This document shows, piece by piece, positions 30,154 through 39,730 of a stretch of DNA of 64,000 nucleotides. The stretch is from Promethearchaeota archaeon (GTDB lineage: Archaea > Asgardarchaeota > Lokiarchaeia > Sigyniarchaeales > SOKP01), in assembly GCA_030603385.1 (NCBI GenBank), contig JAUVXW010000002.1, positions 131,016-195,015 of the forward strand, read 5' to 3'. The notes under the pieces were generated by a model. That model had not been told where the DNA came from. It worked only from the letters and a program-made list of their open reading frames with translations, and did not search any database. A program made the position numbers and the translations under genes. Each line of letters starts with the position of its first letter. Position 1 is the first letter of the stretch.

Positions 30154-30846
30154 ATGTTCTCTGAAAACGAACTTAATAATATTAAAAGAGAAATGAGTAA
30201 ACTAAAAAATACAGTAGTCTTAAAGTTGTTTACTGATTTCAAAACTCAAAAAGATGGAAGTAAATTAAGAAAGTGTATGTCTTGTGAGGGAACATATGAA
30301 TTATTAGAAACATTAGTAGAATTCTCTAATGGGAAATTGAAAGTTGAAGAAATATCAACCGAAGAAAATGAGGAAGAAGCAGAAAAATACAAGGTTTCCA
30401 GGATTCCTGCCATTCTATTTGTTGATGAAAATGACAAGGAAATTATTCGATATCTTGCACATCCAACTGGATCTGAATTTGTACCTTTTCTTAATAGTAT
30501 ACAATATTTTTCAGGAGTAAGGCCCTATTATGCGGATCAAATTATTACTCATCTTAAAAAGATAAAAAAGTCAAATATGAAAATCTTTATTACTCCAACG
30601 TGTCCATATTGTCCTGCAACTGTGCCTGTCCTCACTCTATTTTCTATAGTCTCTAAAGGGAAGATTTCCTCAGAAGTAATTGATGTTAATTTAAATCCAG
30701 ATATGGGTAAGAAATACCAAGTTCAAGGTGTTCCAATGACAGTTATAAATGAGAAAGATGTTATCCATGGAATGTTTACACCTCAAGATTTGCTAGATAA
30801 ACTAGTTGGTTCGAAAGGAAGAGATTTTGGAGGAATGTACGCGTAA
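30154..30846 (+). CDS. Protein disulfide oxidoreductase (PDO/AhpF-N-like)
   Basis: Two thioredoxin folds with CMSC and CPYC. Confidence 0.88.
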   Translation: MFSENELNNIKREMSKLKNTVVLKLFTDFKTQKDGSKLRKCMSCEGTYELLETLVEFSNGKLKVEEISTEENEEEAEKYKVSRIPAILFVDENDKEIIRYLAHPTGSEFVPFLNSIQYFSGVRPYYADQIITHLKKIKKSNMKIFITPTCPYCPATVPVLTLFSIVSKGKISSEVIDVNLNPDMGKKYQVQGVPMTVINEKDVIHGMFTPQDLLDKLVGSKGRDFGGMYA

Positions 30847-30869
30847 TTTACTCGAGGTGAATTGAAAAA

Positions 30870-31553
30870 ATGTCTCAAGATGATAGATATAAAGCAATAA
30901 TTAAAGCAGAAATGGCTAAGTTAAAAAAGCCAGTAAAGTTGAGAGTATTCACATGTAAAGAAAAACTCCCAAATGGGAGTCAAATAAGAGAATGCATGGA
31001 TTGTGGGCAGTTTATGGCATTATTACGAGTCTATGAAGAAAATTCTAATGGGATGTTAACAATTGAGGAATTGTGTATTGATGAAAATCCTGAATTTGCT
31101 AAAAAGTATGATATTACACGAGTTCCTACAATTTTATTTATCGATGATCAAGGAAGAGAAATTATTCGTTACTTAGCGGCTCCACAGGGAGCTGAAATAC
31201 AACCGTTTGTTCAAGCTATATTTGCTTTTGCGGGGGCACCCAATTATTATGGTGCGACGATAAGACAGAATTTAGACCGTATCGAGCCATCCACAATAAA
31301 AGTAATGATAACGGAAACATGCCCATACTGTCCACAAGTTGCACAAATCGTGAACAACTTTGCTATTGCTTCTGGAGGAAAAATTAGATCAATAATTATC
31401 GATATTATGGCAAATCCCGATATTGGTCAGTATTATGATGCTGCAGGTGTTCCGTACACAATAATCAATGATAAAAAAACGCTTGTAGGGATGGTTGGAG
31501 CTCCTGAAATATTAAGAGCCTTGATAGGAGGGAATATTCGTGTTCAATATTGA
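30870..31553 (+). CDS. Protein disulfide oxidoreductase paralog
   Basis: CMDC and CPYC; paralog of the upstream gene. Confidence 0.88.
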   Translation: MSQDDRYKAIIKAEMAKLKKPVKLRVFTCKEKLPNGSQIRECMDCGQFMALLRVYEENSNGMLTIEELCIDENPEFAKKYDITRVPTILFIDDQGREIIRYLAAPQGAEIQPFVQAIFAFAGAPNYYGATIRQNLDRIEPSTIKVMITETCPYCPQVAQIVNNFAIASGGKIRSIIIDIMANPDIGQYYDAAGVPYTIINDKKTLVGMVGAPEILRALIGGNIRVQY

Positions 31554-32484
31554 TATGGAAAACATTGATTTAGAAAAAACCTATGATCTCATCGTTTTAG
31601 GAGGGGGTCCTACGGCAATAGGTTGCGCTATTTATGCCGCGAGATTTGCTATGGATGCACTGGTTATTGGTAAAACTTTCGGAGGTTTAATTGCTACAAC
31701 GCATATTGTTGAAAACTATCCTGCTATTACCTCGATTAGTGGTCAAGGGCTTATGGAGATGTTCAGAGAACATATGAACTCACTTAATATTCCCTACATA
31801 TCAGATGAGATACGGAGTATTAACAAAGTAGATGATCACTTTGAGCTCAACTCTTTCTTTCAAAAATTTAAGGCCTCTTCAATTTGTATTGCGACAGGTT
31901 CAGAAAGGAAAAAGCTTGGAGTCCCTGGAGAGGAAGACTTTGCTGGAAGAGGTGTATCTTATTGTGCTACATGCGATGGACCCTTTTACAAGGATAAAAT
32001 TGTCAGTGTTATTGGTGGAAGTGATTCCGCTGCCAAGGAAGCATTATTTTTAGCTGAAAATGTTAAAAAGGTTTATATTATTTATCGTGGTGAAGAAATA
32101 CGAGCAGAACCCATTAATAAGCAAAGAGTCTATGAGAATGATAAAATTGAAATTATTTATAAAACAAATATCGTCGAAATTAAAGGAGATAATACAGTAA
32201 AATCTGTTGTTTTTGATAATGGAAAAGAGTTTGAGGTTGATGGGGTTTTTATAGAAATAGGTTCTATACCAAAATCAGATCTGGCAAAGAGAATTGGAGT
32301 AAAGACAAATGAGAAGGGTGAAATCATTATTAATCGCAAATCCGAAACAAATATCCCCGGTATTTTTGCTGCTGGAGATGTTGCTGATGCTCCTTTTAAA
32401 CAAGCAATTACAGGAGTGTCTGAAGGAGTAATTGCTGCTTATTCTGCTTTTGATTATGTCAAAGAAGTGAATATTGAATACTAA
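31540..32484 (+). CDS. trxB: Thioredoxin reductase
   Basis: GGGP, VENYP, GVSYCATCDG and FAAGD motifs. Confidence 0.95.
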   Translation: MFNIDMENIDLEKTYDLIVLGGGPTAIGCAIYAARFAMDALVIGKTFGGLIATTHIVENYPAITSISGQGLMEMFREHMNSLNIPYISDEIRSINKVDDHFELNSFFQKFKASSICIATGSERKKLGVPGEEDFAGRGVSYCATCDGPFYKDKIVSVIGGSDSAAKEALFLAENVKKVYIIYRGEEIRAEPINKQRVYENDKIEIIYKTNIVEIKGDNTVKSVVFDNGKEFEVDGVFIEIGSIPKSDLAKRIGVKTNEKGEIIINRKSETNIPGIFAAGDVADAPFKQAITGVSEGVIAAYSAFDYVKEVNIEY

Positions 32485-32556: not shown

Positions 32557-32880
32557 TTATTCAATTTTTACATCTATACTATGATACTCGGGCTCTTTAA
32601 AAGGTACATCAATCTTTAGAAGACCTTGTTTATAAGTTGCTTTAGCTTCTTCTGGTTTTACAGGGCAACAAATAGAATAGGATCCGATATAAATAGTATC
32701 TTCAGTTTCTCCTTTTATAAAGAAACTATCGTCATGCATTTTAAGTTTAATAGCGTCTTTCTCTACTCCAGGTAGCTGTATTTCGATTTTATAGGTTTCA
32801 TTATCATCATCAGCCCAAGAACATACTTCGGGGGAGGTTAAAAACTTATCTTCTTCTTTAACTTCTTGCATATTTTTCAC
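32557..32880 (-). CDS. Hsp20/alpha-crystallin small heat-shock protein
   Basis: LPGVEK and AKATYKQGLLKI motifs. Confidence 0.85.
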   Translation of the reverse strand: MKNMQEVKEEDKFLTSPEVCSWADDDNETYKIEIQLPGVEKDAIKLKMHDDSFFIKGETEDTIYIGSYSICCPVKPEEAKATYKQGLLKIDVPFKEPEYHSIDVKIE

Positions 32881-33056: not shown

Positions 33057-33983
33057 TTATTGAGGTTTCAGCAAAAGCGAACCTGTTGATAATATTTCTA
33101 AAATTATCTCCCAATAATCTTCTATTTCCCAATCCTGGTTATTTTTTATCTTTTCAGAGATTTCCTTCAATATTTCCCTTATTTTAAGTGAATCGAAATA
33201 AGTTATATTGGGAGCGATTATAGATAGCATATATTGCTTTTCTCCGTATCTTTCATTTTTATCCGGAAACGCATCAAAAAATACATATCCCTTTTTTTTT
33301 ATATTTTCAATGTTTAAAAGGATTCCCTGAGCTTGCGTAATCTTATCCTGTCCATAAATAGACGTTGCGGCATGGAATAGCTGTTTACCTATATTATTAA
33401 TTGAAATATGACATGTCCCCTCAGGGGGATGACTATTCTTTAACATTGGTCCTAAAATATCATCCCAGAATACTACTAATAGACAAAAGGGTAACGTATC
33501 GTCTTCAGAAATAGATGGTTGCATTTCTATTTGAAAGGAGGTTAGTAATTCCTTAACTTTATTATCAAGGAGATTTGATTTTCGATTTCGAGCTATTTTC
33601 CCAGAGATTGACGCAATTAGATCTTCCTCGTTAAATGGTTTAGTAATATAATCGTCAACCCCTAACATTTTACCCAATCGAATATCTTCAGGAGTAGATT
33701 TTGCTGTCAGAAATAAAAAGGGTATATGATTCCATTGAGAATGAGTAGAAACAGCAGCAAAGAACTCATAACCGTTCATATTCGGCATCATTATGTCCGA
33801 GATGATGACAGAAGGAATGGCATCAAGAGTGGAGAGCGTTTTAAGTGCTTTATCTCCATTGATGGAAGTTATGACGTCATAACCCTTTTCTTCGAGTAAG
33901 ATTTTTAGATTAAATAGAATGTCCTTATTATCATCAACAACCATTAATAACGGTTTGGAATCTGGCATCTTAGAATTCCCCAC
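33057..33983 (-). CDS. Response regulator: receiver domain fused to a longin/uDENN-like domain
   Basis: Receiver with D17/D18, D63 (SDIMMP), T93 and K115 (KPF). C-terminal domain has FWDDILGP...DKNERYG..YMLSIIAP and a beta-beta-alpha-beta-beta-beta-alpha-alpha pattern. Confidence 0.8.
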   Translation of the reverse strand: MGNSKMPDSKPLLMVVDDNKDILFNLKILLEEKGYDVITSINGDKALKTLSTLDAIPSVIISDIMMPNMNGYEFFAAVSTHSQWNHIPFLFLTAKSTPEDIRLGKMLGVDDYITKPFNEEDLIASISGKIARNRKSNLLDNKVKELLTSFQIEMQPSISEDDTLPFCLLVVFWDDILGPMLKNSHPPEGTCHISINNIGKQLFHAATSIYGQDKITQAQGILLNIENIKKKGYVFFDAFPDKNERYGEKQYMLSIIAPNITYFDSLKIREILKEISEKIKNNQDWEIEDYWEIILEILSTGSLLLKPQ

Positions 33984-34034
33984 TAGTTTAGCAAGAATAA
34001 TATTAATACTTTTAATATATATAGTTTTTCAATA

Positions 34035-36968
34035 TCAAACAATTTGAGGTAAAAACAAATTAAATGTCGTTCCTTTTCCTAATTCACTTTCCACAAAAAA
34101 ATGCCCTTTATGTGCCTCAATTAAATCTTTCACGATAGCAAGCCCTAATCCTGTTCCCGCAATTTCATTTACATTGCTAGAACGGAAAAATCGTTCAAAA
34201 ATTTTAGGTAAATCCTCCTTTGGAATACCACGACCATAATCCTTAAATTGAAAGAGAATTCCCGGATTTCCATTCAAATTGTATTTACCTTCATAATTAT
34301 TTATTGCTCGAATTTCTACTTTTGAATTTTTACTTGAATATTTTATTGCATTATCGATAATTATTCGAAAGATTTGATCTATTCTCTTTGCATCACCTCG
34401 TAATTGAAGACTTTCATCCACATCGACTTCAAATTCTATATTCTTTTCCTTACCAATAGGTTCCATAAGATATAAGATTTCAGTAAGAATTTCCAAAGGT
34501 TTATATTCTTTCCAGCTCAATTTCAATTTTTTTTCATCTATCCTTGAGATCAATAAAATATCCTCGGCTAATTGATTTAACAATTGGATGTTTCTTGATA
34601 TTCCATCCATCAGTTTTTCTTCCAAATCTTCATTAGGGGTGTCCCTATTCTTAGTAAGATATTCTATAGACATTAATAAAACCGTAATGGGTGTTCTCAA
34701 TTCATGTGATACGGTCGAAATTAATTGTGATAATCTTTCTTCTGCTTGTTTACGTTCTGTTATATCCATTCCATATATATTGACATAATTTTCATGTTCT
34801 ACTGGAGTGATGACCAATGTATAAGTCCGACCATCTAGATTTACTTCAAGTTCCTGAATTTTGTTTTTACTTATGGTATAATTGATTGATTCAGTTAACA
34901 TTTTCGGAACCATACTCCCTTCTAGAACATTAAATAGTTTATTTCCAGCTTTGTTAGTGTAAATTACTTGTTTATAATCTACTCTTAAAACGGGATTTGG
35001 GTTTTCAGATGGAAATTTAGATAAATTATGTATCCTTTCCTCATTTTTTTTACGTTCGATAAAAAGACTCAACATCTCAGATATACCATTAATTAAATCT
35101 CTCTCTTCCTTAAAGAATGGTCCTTCATAATTCTCTGGTTTTTTCTTTAAATATGAGACATCAATAAGCCCTACTGGTTTTCCATATTCTTTAATATCTG
35201 CTTTTAAAACCCATTCTGTTTCTTTAAAATTTGTTGTTTTAAATTCCAACTCCTTGTAAATGATTCTCGCACATGTAATCTCTGGATATTGCCATGCTGG
35301 TCCAATACAAGTTAAGGTTTTTTCAAGAACTTGCTCTATCGATATATCTATCTGTTCTACTAATTTAGATATATTATAGAGGCATGAAAGTTCTTTTACT
35401 CTTTCTCTTAAATCATATTCTCTCCGTTTTAATGCATCATCTGCCCTCTTTTGGACAGTGATATCTCGAAAAATTGATTGAAAATAAGTCTTTCCGGATA
35501 ATTTGATTACTTTTGCAGTTACGTAAACATCTCTAATTTCTTTATTCTTAGTGATAAATTTGGTCTCAAAATCATCTCTGCCTTTTTTTAATACTTTTTC
35601 TACGTGTGCTTTTGTCTCTGAAGGATCTTCTATAAAATCATAATCATTAATCTTCAAATTTTGAAATTCTTTACGCGTGAACCCTAGAATTTTTAATACT
35701 GCATCATTAAATTCAACAGCCTTAAAAGTTTCAGGGTCTAAAATAATAATACCATCAGGAGATTGTTCGAACGTAGTCCGATATCGAAGCTCCGCCTCTT
35801 CTAGTAACTCCTCCGATTTTTTACTCTCTGTAATATCTGTGGCAAGACTAAGAAGAGAGTAATTTTTTTCATCTATATCCTTTAATGGCTGTTCCACTAT
35901 CCAATAAGTCTTCTTTCCGGATGGTAAATCAAAGGTTCGTTGATATTCTCGATTAATTCCTTTCTGTAATAGTTCACGGTTGCTGTTAAAATATTCGTCG
36001 GCTAATTTCTTTGGAAAAACATCATAAAGCGATTTCCCAATGAAATCTTCAGGTTTCCCACCTAATTCAGTTGCAGCCTTTTCATTTACTAATATATACT
36101 TCCCATTCTCATCCAGCATTGTAATACTTGCACCAGAATGCGTAATAATATTTCGTAACTCTAATTCACTCCTCGAGATTTTCCTAAATAAAAGATCAAA
36201 TGGATCTGCAATCCCAATTTGGATTATTGACTTGTAAAGAAGATAAAATGCAATTATCTTAAAGATGTGCCCAACTAAGTTAGAAAGATCGTATACACCA
36301 ACATAAAACGTGAAGGCTAATTCTGCAATCATTGTAGATACAATTGAACTGACAATCAAGGCTCGGACTTTTTTATCAAATTCTGTCCTATTTTTAATAA
36401 TCATTAAGAGAGAAACAAGTAGTATTAGATTAATTAAATACTCACTGATAATTTTAAAAGGGGTTAGACCATAGTTTTCAATATAACAGATTGGGAAAAA
36501 ACCATTAAAGATTAAGACGAATAATAAAACTGTAATAATAAAATAAAAAGAAAGGAGATATCTAGGTTTGATACTCCTTCTAATCAAATGTGATGAAATT
36601 AGGAAAGCACCAGCTTGAAGATACCGAGCAGCAATCCATAATGATGTTGGAAGATTCGAATCAAATTCTATAAAGATTTGCATTCCTGTGTAAGAAAGCG
36701 TATGAACTAAGTCAATGGCAGCAATAAAGAGAGATGACACTCCAAGATTTAAAAAAAAAGAACTTTTCATATATTTATGCGAGTTCCAGCCAACTAAAAA
36801 CACTCCCCCAGCTATTACTATACTAAATAGCTCAGCAATACTGTGGAATAATAAATATCTATAGAAACTTGTTAAATAAACGAAAAATAGCCCTAAAAGA
36901 AAGACTGCTATTTCTAATATTTCATAGTTTACTTTTCGTTTAGATTCAAGATTATCGTTTTCTGGCAT
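34035..36968 (-). CDS. Membrane sensor histidine kinase (MASE3-like TM domain, multiple PAS, HisKA, HATPase)
   Basis: N-terminal multi-TM domain (HSIAELFSIVIA), PAS/PAC repeats (DIT), SHELRTP, NAIKY, DYGRG and GTGLGL. Confidence 0.92.
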   Translation of the reverse strand: MPENDNLESKRKVNYEILEIAVFLLGLFFVYLTSFYRYLLFHSIAELFSIVIAGGVFLVGWNSHKYMKSSFFLNLGVSSLFIAAIDLVHTLSYTGMQIFIEFDSNLPTSLWIAARYLQAGAFLISSHLIRRSIKPRYLLSFYFIITVLLFVLIFNGFFPICYIENYGLTPFKIISEYLINLILLVSLLMIIKNRTEFDKKVRALIVSSIVSTMIAELAFTFYVGVYDLSNLVGHIFKIIAFYLLYKSIIQIGIADPFDLLFRKISRSELELRNIITHSGASITMLDENGKYILVNEKAATELGGKPEDFIGKSLYDVFPKKLADEYFNSNRELLQKGINREYQRTFDLPSGKKTYWIVEQPLKDIDEKNYSLLSLATDITESKKSEELLEEAELRYRTTFEQSPDGIIILDPETFKAVEFNDAVLKILGFTRKEFQNLKINDYDFIEDPSETKAHVEKVLKKGRDDFETKFITKNKEIRDVYVTAKVIKLSGKTYFQSIFRDITVQKRADDALKRREYDLRERVKELSCLYNISKLVEQIDISIEQVLEKTLTCIGPAWQYPEITCARIIYKELEFKTTNFKETEWVLKADIKEYGKPVGLIDVSYLKKKPENYEGPFFKEERDLINGISEMLSLFIERKKNEERIHNLSKFPSENPNPVLRVDYKQVIYTNKAGNKLFNVLEGSMVPKMLTESINYTISKNKIQELEVNLDGRTYTLVITPVEHENYVNIYGMDITERKQAEERLSQLISTVSHELRTPITVLLMSIEYLTKNRDTPNEDLEEKLMDGISRNIQLLNQLAEDILLISRIDEKKLKLSWKEYKPLEILTEILYLMEPIGKEKNIEFEVDVDESLQLRGDAKRIDQIFRIIIDNAIKYSSKNSKVEIRAINNYEGKYNLNGNPGILFQFKDYGRGIPKEDLPKIFERFFRSSNVNEIAGTGLGLAIVKDLIEAHKGHFFVESELGKGTTFNLFLPQIV

Positions 36969-37040
36969 CTACTCTAAGTTTTTTTATTAAAAATATAATA
37001 AACCATTAAGAAATTAAGAGTTTTATCATTCAAAAATCCA

Positions 37041-37577
37041 TCAAGTTATAATAATTTTCTCAAAAGTAGCATATATTGATGTTTTGTGCACTGAATAATT
37101 AAAATTGGGCGGAACTACTCGTTTTATCGTTCTAAATAACTTATCAATATCATTTTCATCGATTTCGAAATCTGAATCAAATTTATGCAGAAAAATTGAA
37201 AAGTCAATAGTATTCGGATTACATAATTGTTTTATCACTCTATCCATATATTCGAGAGCTTCATCATAGCGATTTTTATCTTGGACATCGATAACATATA
37301 TTATCTTATTTGTTCCAGCTAAAAAATTCGTGAAATCATTTAAATATCCATTACGGAATGCCTTTTGACCACCGAGATCCACAACTAAATATGCTTTATT
37401 TAATGCTTCAAAATCTTCCCAACGAGCGCCTCTTGTGGGTCGGAGAGCGCTAAATGCAGATATATTTTTAATTCCTTTTAAGCAAGTTAATATTGATGTT
37501 TTCCCACTATTATCTAACCCTACTAAGAGGATTTTTACTTGATTTTCTCTTGAACCATCACTGTTTGAAGCAGTCAT
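37041..37577 (-). CDS. Arf/Rag-like small GTPase
   Basis: G1 GLDNSGKT, G2 PT, G3 DLGGQ, G4 HKFD and G5 TSI. Confidence 0.92.
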   Translation of the reverse strand: MTASNSDGSRENQVKILLVGLDNSGKTSILTCLKGIKNISAFSALRPTRGARWEDFEALNKAYLVVDLGGQKAFRNGYLNDFTNFLAGTNKIIYVIDVQDKNRYDEALEYMDRVIKQLCNPNTIDFSIFLHKFDSDFEIDENDIDKLFRTIKRVVPPNFNYSVHKTSIYATFEKIIIT

Positions 37578-37610
37578 TTTTTTCTAATCAAAAAGATATT
37601 AGTTTTTCCT

Positions 37611-37949
37611 TTAAGGAGACAAGACATCACGAATATCTGCATCTTGTAGGTCCTTTAATTTTTTTCTATTAATATTCAAAACAATTGTAGTTATGTCGTT
37701 AATTAGATCGATAACTTCATTATTTTTAATTTTATAATAATTAACATTGTCCCTCTTCTCAAAAGCTATAAGGTTATTCTCAGCAAGCATATTCAAGTGT
37801 TTAGAAATGGTTGATTGTGATCGGCCTAATTCTTCCTGAAGTTCTGAAGAACTTAATTTATTCTTTTCCAAAAGATAAAGAATTTCTATTCTAACAGGGT
37901 CTGCCAATACCTTCAAGAACTCAACTGTAAGTTTTCTTAATTCACTCAT
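37611..37949 (-). CDS. ArsR/SmtB-family regulator
   Basis: LKVLADPVRIEIL and SQSTISKHL motifs. Confidence 0.9.
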   Translation of the reverse strand: MSELRKLTVEFLKVLADPVRIEILYLLEKNKLSSSELQEELGRSQSTISKHLNMLAENNLIAFEKRDNVNYYKIKNNEVIDLINDITTIVLNINRKKLKDLQDADIRDVLSP

Positions 37950-38081
37950 GAAACTCCAGAATTGTGTTTTGTAAGAATGTGTTTTTATACCTTTTTAAAG
38001 CTTATTTTAATGGAATATTAATGTTTTCTTAATAATACGAAAATCACAAAGATTTAAATATTATTGTATCGTAATATTATT

Positions 38082-38101
38082 ATATCGCAATACCGCGATA
38101 T
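38082..38101. promoter_or_regulatory. Candidate operator palindrome in the divergent ArsR/Lrp intergenic region
   Basis: ATATCGC-AATACC-GCGATAT, downstream of a TATA-like TTTAAATA at 38053-38060. Confidence 0.4.
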
Positions 38102-38144
38102 GAGAATAATAATCCTACTTAATGCTCAAAAAAGGGTAAAAAAA

Positions 38145-38657
38145 ATGATAAGTGAAAAAATTGGGATTGACCAAATCGATTGTAGAATAATGGATCTGAT
38201 TCAGAAAGCTCCAAACCTCACACATACTGAAATTGCAACCCATGTGAATCGTAGTCAACCTACCGTAGGGATGCGAATTAAAAAACTTGAGAATTTGGGA
38301 GTTTTAAAGTTTCAGGCAGGTATAAATATTAAAGTCGCAGATCTCTGTTTTGCTAGAGTTGAACTTCAAACTAAAAATCCAAAAATGGCTATTGAAATTG
38401 TTAAGGATTGTCCTTTTATGCTTAACGCGTTCCTTTTGAGCGGAAATTCAAATTTGAGTATTTTAATGGTAGGTTTAAGTTTTAAAGATATTGATCATAT
38501 CGTGAACCGTCATTTTCGAAACGACCCTCATGTTATCAGTGTCCATATTGATATAATTGCTGATGTTGTGAATGACTTTGTTTTACCAATAGATCTAAAT
38601 CTCGAATACGGACAACTTAAAATAAAAAGTTGTTGTTGTGGAAAATGTAATTGTTAA
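38145..38657 (+). CDS. Lrp/AsnC-family regulator with Cys-rich tail
   Basis: HTH (SQPTVGMRIKKLE), CPF motif and C-terminal CCCGKCNC. Confidence 0.88.
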   Translation: MISEKIGIDQIDCRIMDLIQKAPNLTHTEIATHVNRSQPTVGMRIKKLENLGVLKFQAGINIKVADLCFARVELQTKNPKMAIEIVKDCPFMLNAFLLSGNSNLSILMVGLSFKDIDHIVNRHFRNDPHVISVHIDIIADVVNDFVLPIDLNLEYGQLKIKSCCCGKCNC

Positions 38658-38704: not shown

Positions 38705-38947
38705 TTAATCTATAGTTATAGCCCTTAATTTACAGGCAGTAGTATCGATATGGCATTTTACACAGCGATCTTCATTATCTTCTACTACTATACATTTAGG
38801 TGTAGATTCTTTATTAATAACCTCATAAATACCTCTAAAGCAGGCTTCTTCGCATGAAAATTCTTTACATATGCTACATTTACTTACATCTATGTGATGA
38901 AATTTATAGCTCTCGATGCTACTCTGATTTTTTGCTTCACTCATCAT
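38705..38947 (-). CDS. Ferredoxin-like protein
   Basis: CSICKEFSCEEAC and CVKCHIDTTAC; likely start at MMSEAK. Confidence 0.75.
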   Translation of the reverse strand: MMSEAKNQSSIESYKFHHIDVSKCSICKEFSCEEACFRGIYEVINKESTPKCIVVEDNEDRCVKCHIDTTACKLRAITID

Positions 38948-39061
38948 AATCACCCAAATATAAAATATCAAAAAAATGTTTAGTTTATACTCTATAACAA
39001 AACCTTTTAATTTATACAGATAAATTAACCTACTAAAGAAACTTGAGAAATTAGTTACTTT

Positions 39062-39730
39062 ATGGCTCCTGAAAAACTCCAAATTTTTAAAATACCTGAC
39101 TTGATGAAGGGTATATTTTTATCAAGGCCCAATAGATTTATAGGAGAAATTGAGTATGGAGGGCAACTTGAAACTGCTCATATTCACGATCCCGGTAGAT
39201 TAAAGGAATTACTCGTAAAAGGTGCTGAGGTTTTATTTACATATTCTAGAGGCAAATTAAAGTACTACATTAAAGCCGTTCGTACTGATGATGAGTGGAT
39301 TCTTATAGACACGGCTCTACACTCTAAAATTGCTATGAAAGTTTTTGAGTTTCTGCCAGAATTCTCTGATGTAAAGGAAATTAAAAAGGAGGTAAAAATT
39401 GGAAATAATAGAATTGATTTTGTTCTTGACAATGTTCCGTTAGAAGTAAAAGGCGCGTCATTGGTTAGAGATGGTATTGCACTTTTTCCTGACGCTCCTA
39501 CAGAACGGGGCGCAAGACATGTAAAAGAAATTATTGAGCATAATGGAATTATACTATTTTTAGTTGTTCGCAAGGCTAAAAGTTTTGCTCCAAATTGGGA
39601 GATGGATCCTAAATTTTCTAATAATCTAAGTGAAGCAAGAAAAAAGGGGATTCGAATTATTCCGGTTCAAATTAGTTTTGATGGAAAAACAATCTATTTT
39701 CATGGAATAATTCCACTATCGGATTTTTAA
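39062..39730 (+). CDS. sfsA: SfsA-family nuclease
   Basis: RPNRF, DPGRLKEL, RIDF..EVKG and FPDAPTERGARH motifs. Confidence 0.92.
   Translation: MAPEKLQIFKIPDLMKGIFLSRPNRFIGEIEYGGQLETAHIHDPGRLKELLVKGAEVLFTYSRGKLKYYIKAVRTDDEWILIDTALHSKIAMKVFEFLPEFSDVKEIKKEVKIGNNRIDFVLDNVPLEVKGASLVRDGIALFPDAPTERGARHVKEIIEHNGIILFLVVRKAKSFAPNWEMDPKFSNNLSEARKKGIRIIPVQISFDGKTIYFHGIIPLSDF

Follow-up and report, generated by a model that had tools for sequence, protein, structure and literature searches.

A receiver–longin response regulator and its neighbouring Rag-like GTPase in a Sigyniarchaeales genome: a candidate phosphorylation-gated GTPase-activating protein

What does a response regulator control when its output domain is not a DNA-binding one and a small GTPase is encoded two genes upstream? 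This question is raised by four co-oriented minus-strand open reading frames (ORFs) at positions 33057-37949 of a 64,000-nucleotide (nt) stretch of DNA from a Promethearchaeota archaeon of the Sigyniarchaeales (assembly GCA_030603385.1, contig JAUVXW010000002.1, positions 131,016-195,015). We refer to this whole stretch as the window, and feature coordinates are window-based. The genes are separated by gaps of 33, 72 and 51 nt and encode, in 5' to 3' order, an ArsR-family regulator, a small GTPase, a histidine kinase and a regulator in which a receiver domain is joined to a longin domain. An earlier note made from the letters of the sequence (the original prediction) had listed the same four genes and gaps, and the ORFs were found as listed, with their domains identified by Pfam and NCBIfam. 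It had also read the regulator as a GTPase-activating protein (GAP) or guanine-nucleotide exchange factor (GEF) for the neighbouring GTPase, a reading that is now supported in silico by the fold of the output domain, by residue R245, by gene linkage and by a model of the complex. On this evidence we consider it quite probable that the regulator directly binds and regulates the GTPase of this cassette; whether it does so as an R245-dependent GAP is, on the same kind of evidence, evenly balanced.

The output domain, its motifs and its family

Residues 150-308 of the regulator match no Pfam (E up to 0.1) or NCBIfam family and hence no helix-turn-helix, as first proposed, and a sequence profile of 59 orthologues found nothing among all Protein Data Bank (PDB) sequences at E values up to 10. 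Residue numbers used here follow the GTG start at 33983; the orthologues all start at an internal ATG (MPDSKPLL, 33968) five codons downstream, which is probably the start that should be annotated. We built an AlphaFold2 (AF2) model of residues 140-308 from the 59-sequence alignment, with a predicted local distance difference test (pLDDT) score of 79 and a predicted template-modelling (pTM) score of 0.75. DSSP assignments from two AF2 models give strands at 167-174, 178-185, 219-225, 230-238 and 250-257 and helices at 195-210, 262-280 and 287-299, in the order beta-beta-alpha-beta-beta-beta-alpha-alpha that defines longin topology. The leading Foldseek matches in the PDB were GATOR1 (2.7e-4), the Lst4 longin, FLCN-FNIP2, a Lokiarchaeal Roadblock-Longin protein (8yqg), DENND1A and the active FLCN GAP complex. 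Z-scores were taken from VIA, an independent all-against-all structural alignment, in which the best structural match was the Lokiarchaeal longin 8yqg_B (Z 12.7 over 139 residues, root-mean-square deviation (rmsd) 3.4, 16% identity). It was followed by FLCN complex chain 6nzd_H (11.7), Lst4 (10.9), C9orf72 (10.5), FNIP2 (9.7), DENND1A (9.3), NPRL2/3-type chains (9.2) and SMCR8 (9.0), then by the longins of VAMP7, TRAPP (8.8) and Mon1-Ccz1 (8.7) at Z 8-9, and by roadblock proteins at Z 6-7. A shape search of the ESM Atlas returned a Heimdallarchaeal cluster with Pfam Folliculin in 23% of its members (template-modelling (TM) score 0.68), eukaryotic SMCR8-like proteins (TM 0.65) and an Asgard cluster of GTPase fusions with 274 members (TM 0.69). 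The best named matches of a feature search in the same atlas scored 0.76-0.80, under the trust level, and serve as leads only; they include clusters with NPR2 or Folliculin in 19-23%.

Taken together, the model and the structure searches make the assignment of a longin fold to the predicted domain firm, and its nearest structural relatives are the longins of FLCN, SMCR8, NPRL2 and C9orf72. The longin-type pattern that had been read from the sequence is thus borne out, as is the relationship to these four proteins that had been proposed with it. The accompanying label uDENN survives as the name of a fold only, since no DENN module is present: the protein terminates 8 residues past longin helix alpha3 and a short strand, with no DENN or other C-terminal module, and no second longin gene lies within the cassette. 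Foldseek also listed PAS/LOV domains at about 2e-3, yet with an rmsd of ~14 Å and a TM score of ~0.39, and they are missing from the top VIA rows, which are almost all longin or roadblock domains; a PAS/LOV identity was rejected.

In the AF2 models W173-D174 close strand beta1, G178-P179 open beta2, and R245 lies in the loop between beta4 and beta5, where the original prediction had put it. The two strings quoted there, FWDDILGP (residues 172-179) and DKNERYG..YMLSIIAP, are both found in the regulator, and the codon given for R245 in Table 1 encodes it. A GP motif at the start of beta2, or in the loop before it, is common to FLCN, NPRL2, SMCR8 and C9orf72, where it adjoins the arginine finger, and is missing from non-GAP longins; W33-D34 of C9orf72 and R147 of SMCR8 are essential (PMC12290439). 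Replacement of the former pair (W33G/D34K) abolishes Arf GAP activity, and SMCR8 R147 points at BeF3 (PMC8213707). The W-D-x3-G-P spacing is identical in the two proteins, W173-D174...G178-P179 here and W33-D34...G38-P39 in C9orf72 in the numbering of PMC12290439, so that the resemblance to C9orf72 noted in the original prediction matches the published residues. Judged by these motifs, a single regulator chain would unite features of C9orf72 (WD and GP) with features of SMCR8 (GP and Arg), and we infer that R245 is the equivalent of FLCN R164, NPRL2 R78 and SMCR8 R147.

Searching with residues 150-308 retrieved 192 proteins, all about 300 amino acids (aa) long and all with a receiver domain, whose output domains are 58-93% identical to the query; those with a labelled source come from Asgard bins (Promethearchaeota/Lokiarchaeota, Thor-, Hod-, Odin- and Hermodarchaeota). 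Among the 59 orthologues W173, D175, G178, P179 and R245 of the output domain are invariant. An exhaustive search of 1.84 billion cluster representatives returned 163 relatives. Across 108 representatives with a near-complete domain (50% identity clusters), W173 is kept in 104, G178 in 102, P179 in 101 and R245 in 77, and R245 is present in every receiver–longin protein of the 25 fetched loci. The conservation of R245 across Asgard genomes expected in the original prediction therefore holds throughout the orthologous group and for most of the wider family, and the retention of W173, G178 and P179 in 101-104 of the 108 does not look like chance.

A receiver domain accompanies the longin in 82 of 105 longer family representatives. 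Alternative partners are a kinase-receiver (P0165, P0174), a kinase (P0260), a PAS domain (P0137), RsbRD_N (P0129) and DUF1638 (P0132), and in two cases the longin is fused directly to a GTPase, of Arf type (P0164) or Ras type (P0167), with WD..GP and the Arg kept in both. P0167 has 8 near-identical members on separate contigs, and this fusion is for that reason no assembly artefact. The names attached to the clusters of stand-alone and fused relatives are merely 'hypothetical protein' or 'PAS domain'. The range of architectures suggests a widespread Asgard signalling output domain that has repeatedly been joined to small GTPases.

The neighbouring GTPase and a predicted complex

The cassette GTPase has an Arf-like P-loop (GLDNSGKT), a switch II DLGGQ with Gln71, and HKFD (H131-K132-F-D134) as its G4 motif; an HKxD G4 motif is typical of Rag GTPases. 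Its G domain scores as Gtr1/RagA, with Arf scoring higher (Table 1), and its nearest solved relatives are the Lokiarchaeal RagA-like GTPases 8yl2 (2.6e-26) and 8zla/9m28 (8e-17). The protein keeps the catalytic Gln, its P-loop contains no arginine, and it ends about 10 residues past G5, with no C-terminal roadblock dimerisation domain. Its orthologues measure 176-184 aa, and about 340 close homologues fall in this range. Residues P47, T48, D67, G70, H131, K132 and D134 are invariant and Q71 is kept in at least 90% of 61 homologues. The 3.9-Mb genome holds 19 GTPase-profile matches, most of them in longer ORFs; the cassette gene matches at 4e-88 and the next at 1e-38, and it is the sole orthologue of its kind there.

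Linkage was counted in two cross-read scans of 400 genomes of the phylum. In all, 77 genomes contained 81 regulator-GTPase pairs, whose starts are separated by 519-4262 bp (median 3324); in 75 of the 81 the GTPase is upstream on the same strand. Chance adjacency, at one GTPase-profile match per ~205 kb, would be about 4%, a figure to be read with the relatedness of the genomes in mind, as these are not independent. The order ArsR-GTPase-kinase-regulator recurs at L003, L004, L008, L009, L019, L024, L025 (ArsR undetected) and L027, and again in another family of the taxonomic order (L029). Other loci vary the arrangement: L015 keeps the order GTPase-kinase-regulator but has another GTPase, at L016 and L017 a kinase-regulator pair precedes two or three GTPase genes of Gtr1_RagA or Arf type, and L022 runs regulator, Gtr1_RagA GTPase, kinase. 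Unlike the related genomes, the distinct gene orders and the fusions are independent support for linkage. The synteny with a GTPase that the original prediction had named as a check is accordingly found in these pairs, in several gene orders and in GTPase–longin fusions.

At L017 (5449-8905) the GTPases that follow the kinase and receiver–longin genes are three in tandem on the same strand, two of Gtr1_RagA type (407 and 425 aa) and one of Arf type (321 aa), each with an unannotated N-terminal extension of 100-150 aa. Genomes G224, G185, G236 and G262 each hold two separate regulator-GTPase pairs on different contigs, and part of the lineage is on that account taken to have a duplicated cassette. 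The genus of G167, G168 and G169 has a convergent GTPase directly after the regulator.

The genome under study encodes one paralogue of the receiver–longin protein (L007:7834-8706, contig C34, ~123 kb before the window; 290 aa, 33% identical). The genes on either side encode FAD_binding_4 and CCG-domain (GlcD/GlcF-like) proteins, and no GTPase is close by. At the hairpin the sequence is WNNESEP, in which the Gly of GP is lost, and Gln occupies the R245 position. This paralogue may be regarded as a small natural control: the copy that lacks a GTPase neighbour is also the one in which the candidate catalytic residues have gone.

We modelled the complex from two longin copies, the GTPase, GTP and Mg, each protein with its own alignment, alongside three controls. 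The interface score (interaction prediction score from aligned errors, ipSAE) was 0.63, versus 0.16 for the best of the three controls; in calibration, 58 of 80 solved complexes and 2 of 110 mismatched pairs attained this mark. At least 57% of contacts recur between runs, and the partner pLDDT is 76 or more. On the longin side the confident interface is made up of residues 173-180 (WDDILGPM), helix alpha1, R245-Y246 (model residues 106-107) and Q250, and on the GTPase side of D22-N23 (P-loop), residues 44-52 (switch I) and Q71-F74 (switch II); the contacts of lowest error join the WD..GP hairpin to the P-loop, switch I and Gln71. Solved longin GAP complexes have the geometry predicted here, and in them client specificity, too, is set by the beta1-beta2 loop (PMC9473554). 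The model thus supports binding of the longin to the GTPase, with R245 and the WD..GP hairpin at the active-site face of the GTPase, in line with what the original prediction had anticipated from modelling.

Mechanism and alternatives

In the pathway that we propose, the MASE3/PAS kinase would sense a membrane or redox-type signal and phosphorylate D63 of the receiver. Phosphorylation, probably through dimerisation of the receiver and linker, would then set the presentation of two longin domains. The longin would bind the Rag-like GTPase through the WD..GP hairpin and helix alpha1 and insert R245 of the beta4-beta5 loop beside Gln71, making the regulator a phosphorylation-gated GAP like FLCN, NPRL2 and SMCR8. 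The output of the pathway would then be protein-protein control of a small GTPase and not DNA binding, and, more speculatively, the GTPase might in turn act, by way of ArsR or AsnC, on the chaperone and thiol-redox genes next to the cassette. Phosphotransfer, dimerisation, GAP over GEF activity and the sign of regulation are all steps that we infer. We favour the dimeric presentation because in the full-length model (pLDDT 80) one unbroken helix (residues 119-149) leads from receiver alpha5 to the longin, because longin and roadblock regulators act as dimers, and because 8yqg is a dimer; a layout with alpha5 running into a linker helix couples phosphorylation to dimerisation in many response regulators. 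As a whole, the phosphorylation-gated longin GAP pathway is the best explanation that we can offer, and on this evidence the case for it stands at about even.

Signal flow from kinase to regulator is the standard layout, and both proteins are equipped for it. The kinase has the H-box SHELRTP in its HisKA domain, its gene ends 51 nt upstream of the regulator gene, and the pairing is retained in 20 of 26 fetched loci, L001 included. Receiver residues D17, D18, D63 and K115 are invariant among the 59 orthologues and T93 is kept in at least 90%, so that the full set of phosphorylation residues noted at the outset is preserved. One could suppose the reverse or a loop, in which the GTPase and its longin partner modulate the kinase or ArsR and the receiver–longin protein serves as a phosphate sink or adaptor. 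The GTPase gene does lie upstream of the kinase gene and directly after that of a transcription factor, and in conservon/AGPS operons, which join a kinase, a roadblock protein, CvnC and a GTPase, the order of signalling is itself unresolved (PMC13343842). We nevertheless regard reversed flow as improbable, as the receiver keeps every phospho-acceptor residue beside a complete kinase and the kinase-receiver-longin fusions P0165 and P0174 place the longin at the output end.

Several observations weigh against the phosphorylation-gated GAP pathway, and the first concern linkage. Ten of 24 assessable sampled receiver–longin loci have no GTPase within ~4 kb; none was seen in the fetched flanks of L011-L014, L020, L021, L023, L028, L030 and L032, the nearest to L018 is 7 kb off, and about half of the more distant receiver–longin loci lack a nearby GTPase. 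Universal GTPase adjacency in the wider family was considered and rejected on the basis of the ten loci and the paralogue in the same genome. The same loci and paralogue would be expected if the longin targeted something else, such as another protein, a membrane or a small ligand in the manner of PAS/GAF-like folds, with the GTPase merely co-regulated in a stress locus; the LOV/PAS entries in Foldseek and a neighbourhood rich in chaperone and redox genes point the same way. We hold this to be unlikely to much the same degree as reversed flow: the PAS/LOV superpositions are poor and the top VIA rows nearly all longin or roadblock, adjacency in 77 genomes, several gene orders and direct GTPase fusions are hard to explain without a physical link, and the complex model passes its three controls.

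Further points concern the step from binding to catalysis. HMMER gave no sequence similarity to FLCN, NPRL2 or SMCR8, and because the Pfam, NCBIfam and PDB profile searches found nothing, the link to these proteins rests on fold and motifs. The Arg at position 245 is missing from 31 of the 108 wider-family representatives, the beta4-beta5 loop has a pLDDT of ~66, and the model does not let one read how far R245 lies from the nucleotide. Just one of the two longin copies contacts the GTPase confidently, the custom alignments and ligands lie outside the calibration of the score, and the pass itself may reflect recall of similar solved longin-GAP complexes. The full-length model, made to look for packing of the receiver on the longin face, has a pTM of 0.50, at which the interdomain arrangement is unreadable. 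In eukaryotes the longin GAPs work as heterodimers and carry DENN or other domains, which are absent here. Finally, GEF longins score only 2-3 Z units below GAP longins (DENND1A 9.3, TRAPP 8.8, Mon1-Ccz1 8.7), and fold alone is for this reason no arbiter between GAP and GEF.

This last point leads to the alternative that we take most seriously, though we rate it as doubtful: the longin may bind the GTPase as an exchange factor, as a holder resembling a guanine-nucleotide dissociation inhibitor (GDI) or as a docking platform or effector (compare DENN, Mon1-Ccz1, TRAPP, Ragulator and RomRX), with phosphorylation controlling recruitment or exchange. Linkage, fusions and the complex model fit it equally well, longin and roadblock platforms are for the most part GEFs or scaffolds (PMC10933270), and Lst4/FNIP2 and C9orf72, which are top solved neighbours of the output domain, are non-catalytic subunits. 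RomRX, formerly taken for a GEF, is now reported as an effector of MglA-GTP (PMC13408092). What favours a GAP over such a GEF or platform is the pattern of residues: the GP motif is reportedly missing from non-GAP longins (PMC12290439), the Arg invariant among the orthologues lies on the hairpin face, in the predicted interface beside the catalytic Gln, and the paralogue without a GTPase neighbour has lost exactly the Gly of GP and the Arg.

The cassette in its neighbourhood and among known systems

Coordinates of the cassette and its surroundings are collected in Table 1. The ArsR gene occupies the same position at L003, L004, L008, L009, L019, L024, L027 and L029, and an AsnC/Lrp gene lies upstream of ArsR at L003, L004, L008, L009, L019, L024, L025 and L027. 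HSP20 adjoins the cassette at L001, L003, L004 and L027, and orthologues of the redox genes, 72-89% identical, are syntenic at L003, L004, L019, L027 and L001. A flank of L004 carries instead Glycos_transf_2, PIG-L and BshC-like genes, of which the PIG-L and BshC-like families suggest bacillithiol synthesis. The gene content of these flanks suggests a thiol-redox or heat-stress setting.

Table 1. Features of the cassette and adjoining genes, in window coordinates
Feature	Coordinates	Strand	Basis
ArsR/SmtB-family winged-helix regulator, first cassette gene	37611..37949	-	Pfam HTH_5 1.8e-13; NCBIfam HTH_metalloreg 73 bits (cutoff 55)
Rag/Arf-like small GTPase, 178 aa	37041..37577	-	Pfam Arf 1.1e-20 (74.3 bits), Gtr1_RagA 1.8e-16 (60.7 bits, cutoff 22)
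Membrane sensor histidine kinase, 977 aa	34035..36968	-	MASE3 7.9e-78, PAS domains, HisKA 3e-12, HATPase_c 2.8e-26
Response regulator (receiver, long linker helix, longin output), 308 aa	33057..33983	-	Likely true start ATG 33968
Receiver domain, aa 12-130	33594..33950	-	Response_reg 2.4e-23, aa 14-126
Phospho-acceptor D63 codon	33795-33797	-	Codon checked
Predicted longin domain, aa 165-300, FLCN/SMCR8/C9orf72/NPRL2 type	33084..33491	-	AF2 model, structure searches
WDDILGP (WD and GP motifs), beta1-beta2 hairpin	33447..33467	-	Conserved motif
R245, candidate arginine finger, beta4-beta5 loop	33249..33251	-	Codon checked
HSP20 small heat-shock protein, 176 nt downstream of regulator	32557..32880	-	Pfam HSP20 1.5e-09
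Two thioredoxin-fold protein disulfide oxidoreductases and a thioredoxin-reductase-like flavoprotein, convergent	30154..32484	+	Pyr_redox_2 4.2e-45 for 31540-32484
AsnC/Lrp-family regulator, divergent	38064..38657	+	HTH_24 4.4e-12, HTH_AsnC-type 3.8e-09

The kinase is 58% identical to its counterpart in the syntenic L003 cassette. Its length compares with ~840 aa for syntenic orthologues, and it has an additional PAS domain at about residues 262-388. In the place of a further PAS of the L003 kinase, residues ~510-625 form a different, unannotated module. The sensor part is thus modular, with the MASE3 and catalytic parts conserved. Beyond the AsnC/Lrp gene, a 125-aa minus-strand ORF at 38705-39082 has no Pfam match and overlaps the start of a plus-strand ORF at 39062-39730.

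Among prokaryotic systems, the actinobacterial conservons (CvnA-D; Mfp) come closest. They too are four-gene operons, in which a kinase, a roadblock-superfamily regulator (a GAP in Mfp), an accessory protein and a Ras-superfamily GTPase are joined (PMC13343842). They differ in being bacterial, in using an MglB-type roadblock and an MglA-like GTPase, in having no receiver between kinase and regulator, and in having CvnC where ArsR sits. By analogy, then, the cassette may be likened to a conservon in its wiring, as its closest prokaryotic analogue and not as a member. The Myxococcus MglA-MglB-RomR/RomX module likewise sets a small GTPase under a roadblock-fold GAP and a receiver-domain protein, but there the receiver (RomR) and the GAP (MglB) come as two proteins, the latter lacking an arginine finger, and the genes are not in cassette form.

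Solved relatives of both proteins come from Lokiarchaea. The best structural match of the output domain, 8yqg, has its longin fused to a roadblock and not to a receiver, and LokiRagO (8yl2), the best sequence match of the GTPase, and LokiRagM (8zla/9m28) both carry a C-terminal roadblock that the GTPase here does not have. GTPase genes in the cultured Lokiarchaeon lie mostly outside operons with longin or roadblock genes, which makes their partners hard to assign (PMC10933270). Liu et al. (bioRxiv 10.1101/2020.10.19.343400, Fig. 5c) described Asgard fusions of NPRL2-like longins with two-component domains, of the same receiver-, kinase- and PAS-longin class, and the regulator is almost certainly a member of it. 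The available part of that preprint ties the fusions, by analogy, to amino-acid starvation and growth control; it does not mention a dedicated GTPase partner, the ArsR-GTPase-kinase-regulator cassette, the WD..GP/Arg motifs or the chaperone/redox neighbourhood. A set of 15 Asgard FLCN/SMCR8-type longins has the GP motif and a conserved Arg in a matching structural arrangement (Traffic 2025, PMC12290439). The portion of that article available to us asks whether ArfR or Rag/Gtr GTPases partner these longins and whether they share GAP activity, and it contains no mention of a receiver fusion or operon; the cassette offers a Rag-like GTPase as an answer. A full-text literature search, of incomplete coverage, found no paper on the ArsR-GTPase-kinase-regulator cassette. 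Receiver–longin fusions and Asgard longins with GP and an Arg finger are thus already published, and the fixed GTPase partner is what is new; novelty is lower than the original prediction had supposed, given the fusion class of Liu et al.

The eukaryotic longin GAPs (FLCN-FNIP2 for RagC/D, NPRL2-NPRL3 of GATOR1 for RagA/B, C9orf72-SMCR8 for Arf) share with the regulator the longin fold (Z 9-11.7), a GP at the hairpin and a conserved Arg on the same face. They also share a Rag- or Arf-type client with a catalytic Gln, and the interface at P-loop, switch I and switch II that is predicted here; C9orf72 adds the WD motif in identical W-D-x3-G-P spacing. They differ in that the regulator has one longin of 150 aa, lacks a DENN or C-terminal module as well as a distinct second subunit, and combines WD, GP and Arg in a single chain, where C9orf72-SMCR8 splits WD and Arg between two. 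Lysosomal scaffolds on their side stand against a fused receiver and a histidine kinase on this one, and the client here has no roadblock domain. A tentative extension, which we consider less likely than not, is that the receiver–longin protein is self-sufficient and, probably as a homodimer, serves as an arginine-finger GAP for a minimal Rag-like GTPase. It would then show the condition that preceded the duplication behind the heterodimeric longin GAPs of eukaryotes (FLCN-FNIP, NPRL2-NPRL3, C9orf72-SMCR8). The Rag-longin GAP axis, which in eukaryotes feeds nutrient and stress signalling, would have begun, in Asgard archaea, as a His-Asp output of ordinary two-component type at a redox/heat-stress locus.

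The cassette provides a fixed, small and soluble pair, a 178-aa GTPase and a 150-aa longin, with receiver phosphorylation as a built-in switch and with D63, W173/D174, G178/P179, R245 and Q71 as candidate sites for mutation. Should GAP activity prove false, the regulator would still be a response regulator that is well conserved in Asgard archaea and unusual for its protein-binding output. Should it prove true, the arginine-finger longin GAP mechanism would predate eukaryotes, and a eukaryote-type G-protein switch would be wired directly to prokaryotic His-Asp signalling. The longin output is a likely forerunner of the Rag/Arf off-switches of eukaryotes, for which a partner can now be named for testing.

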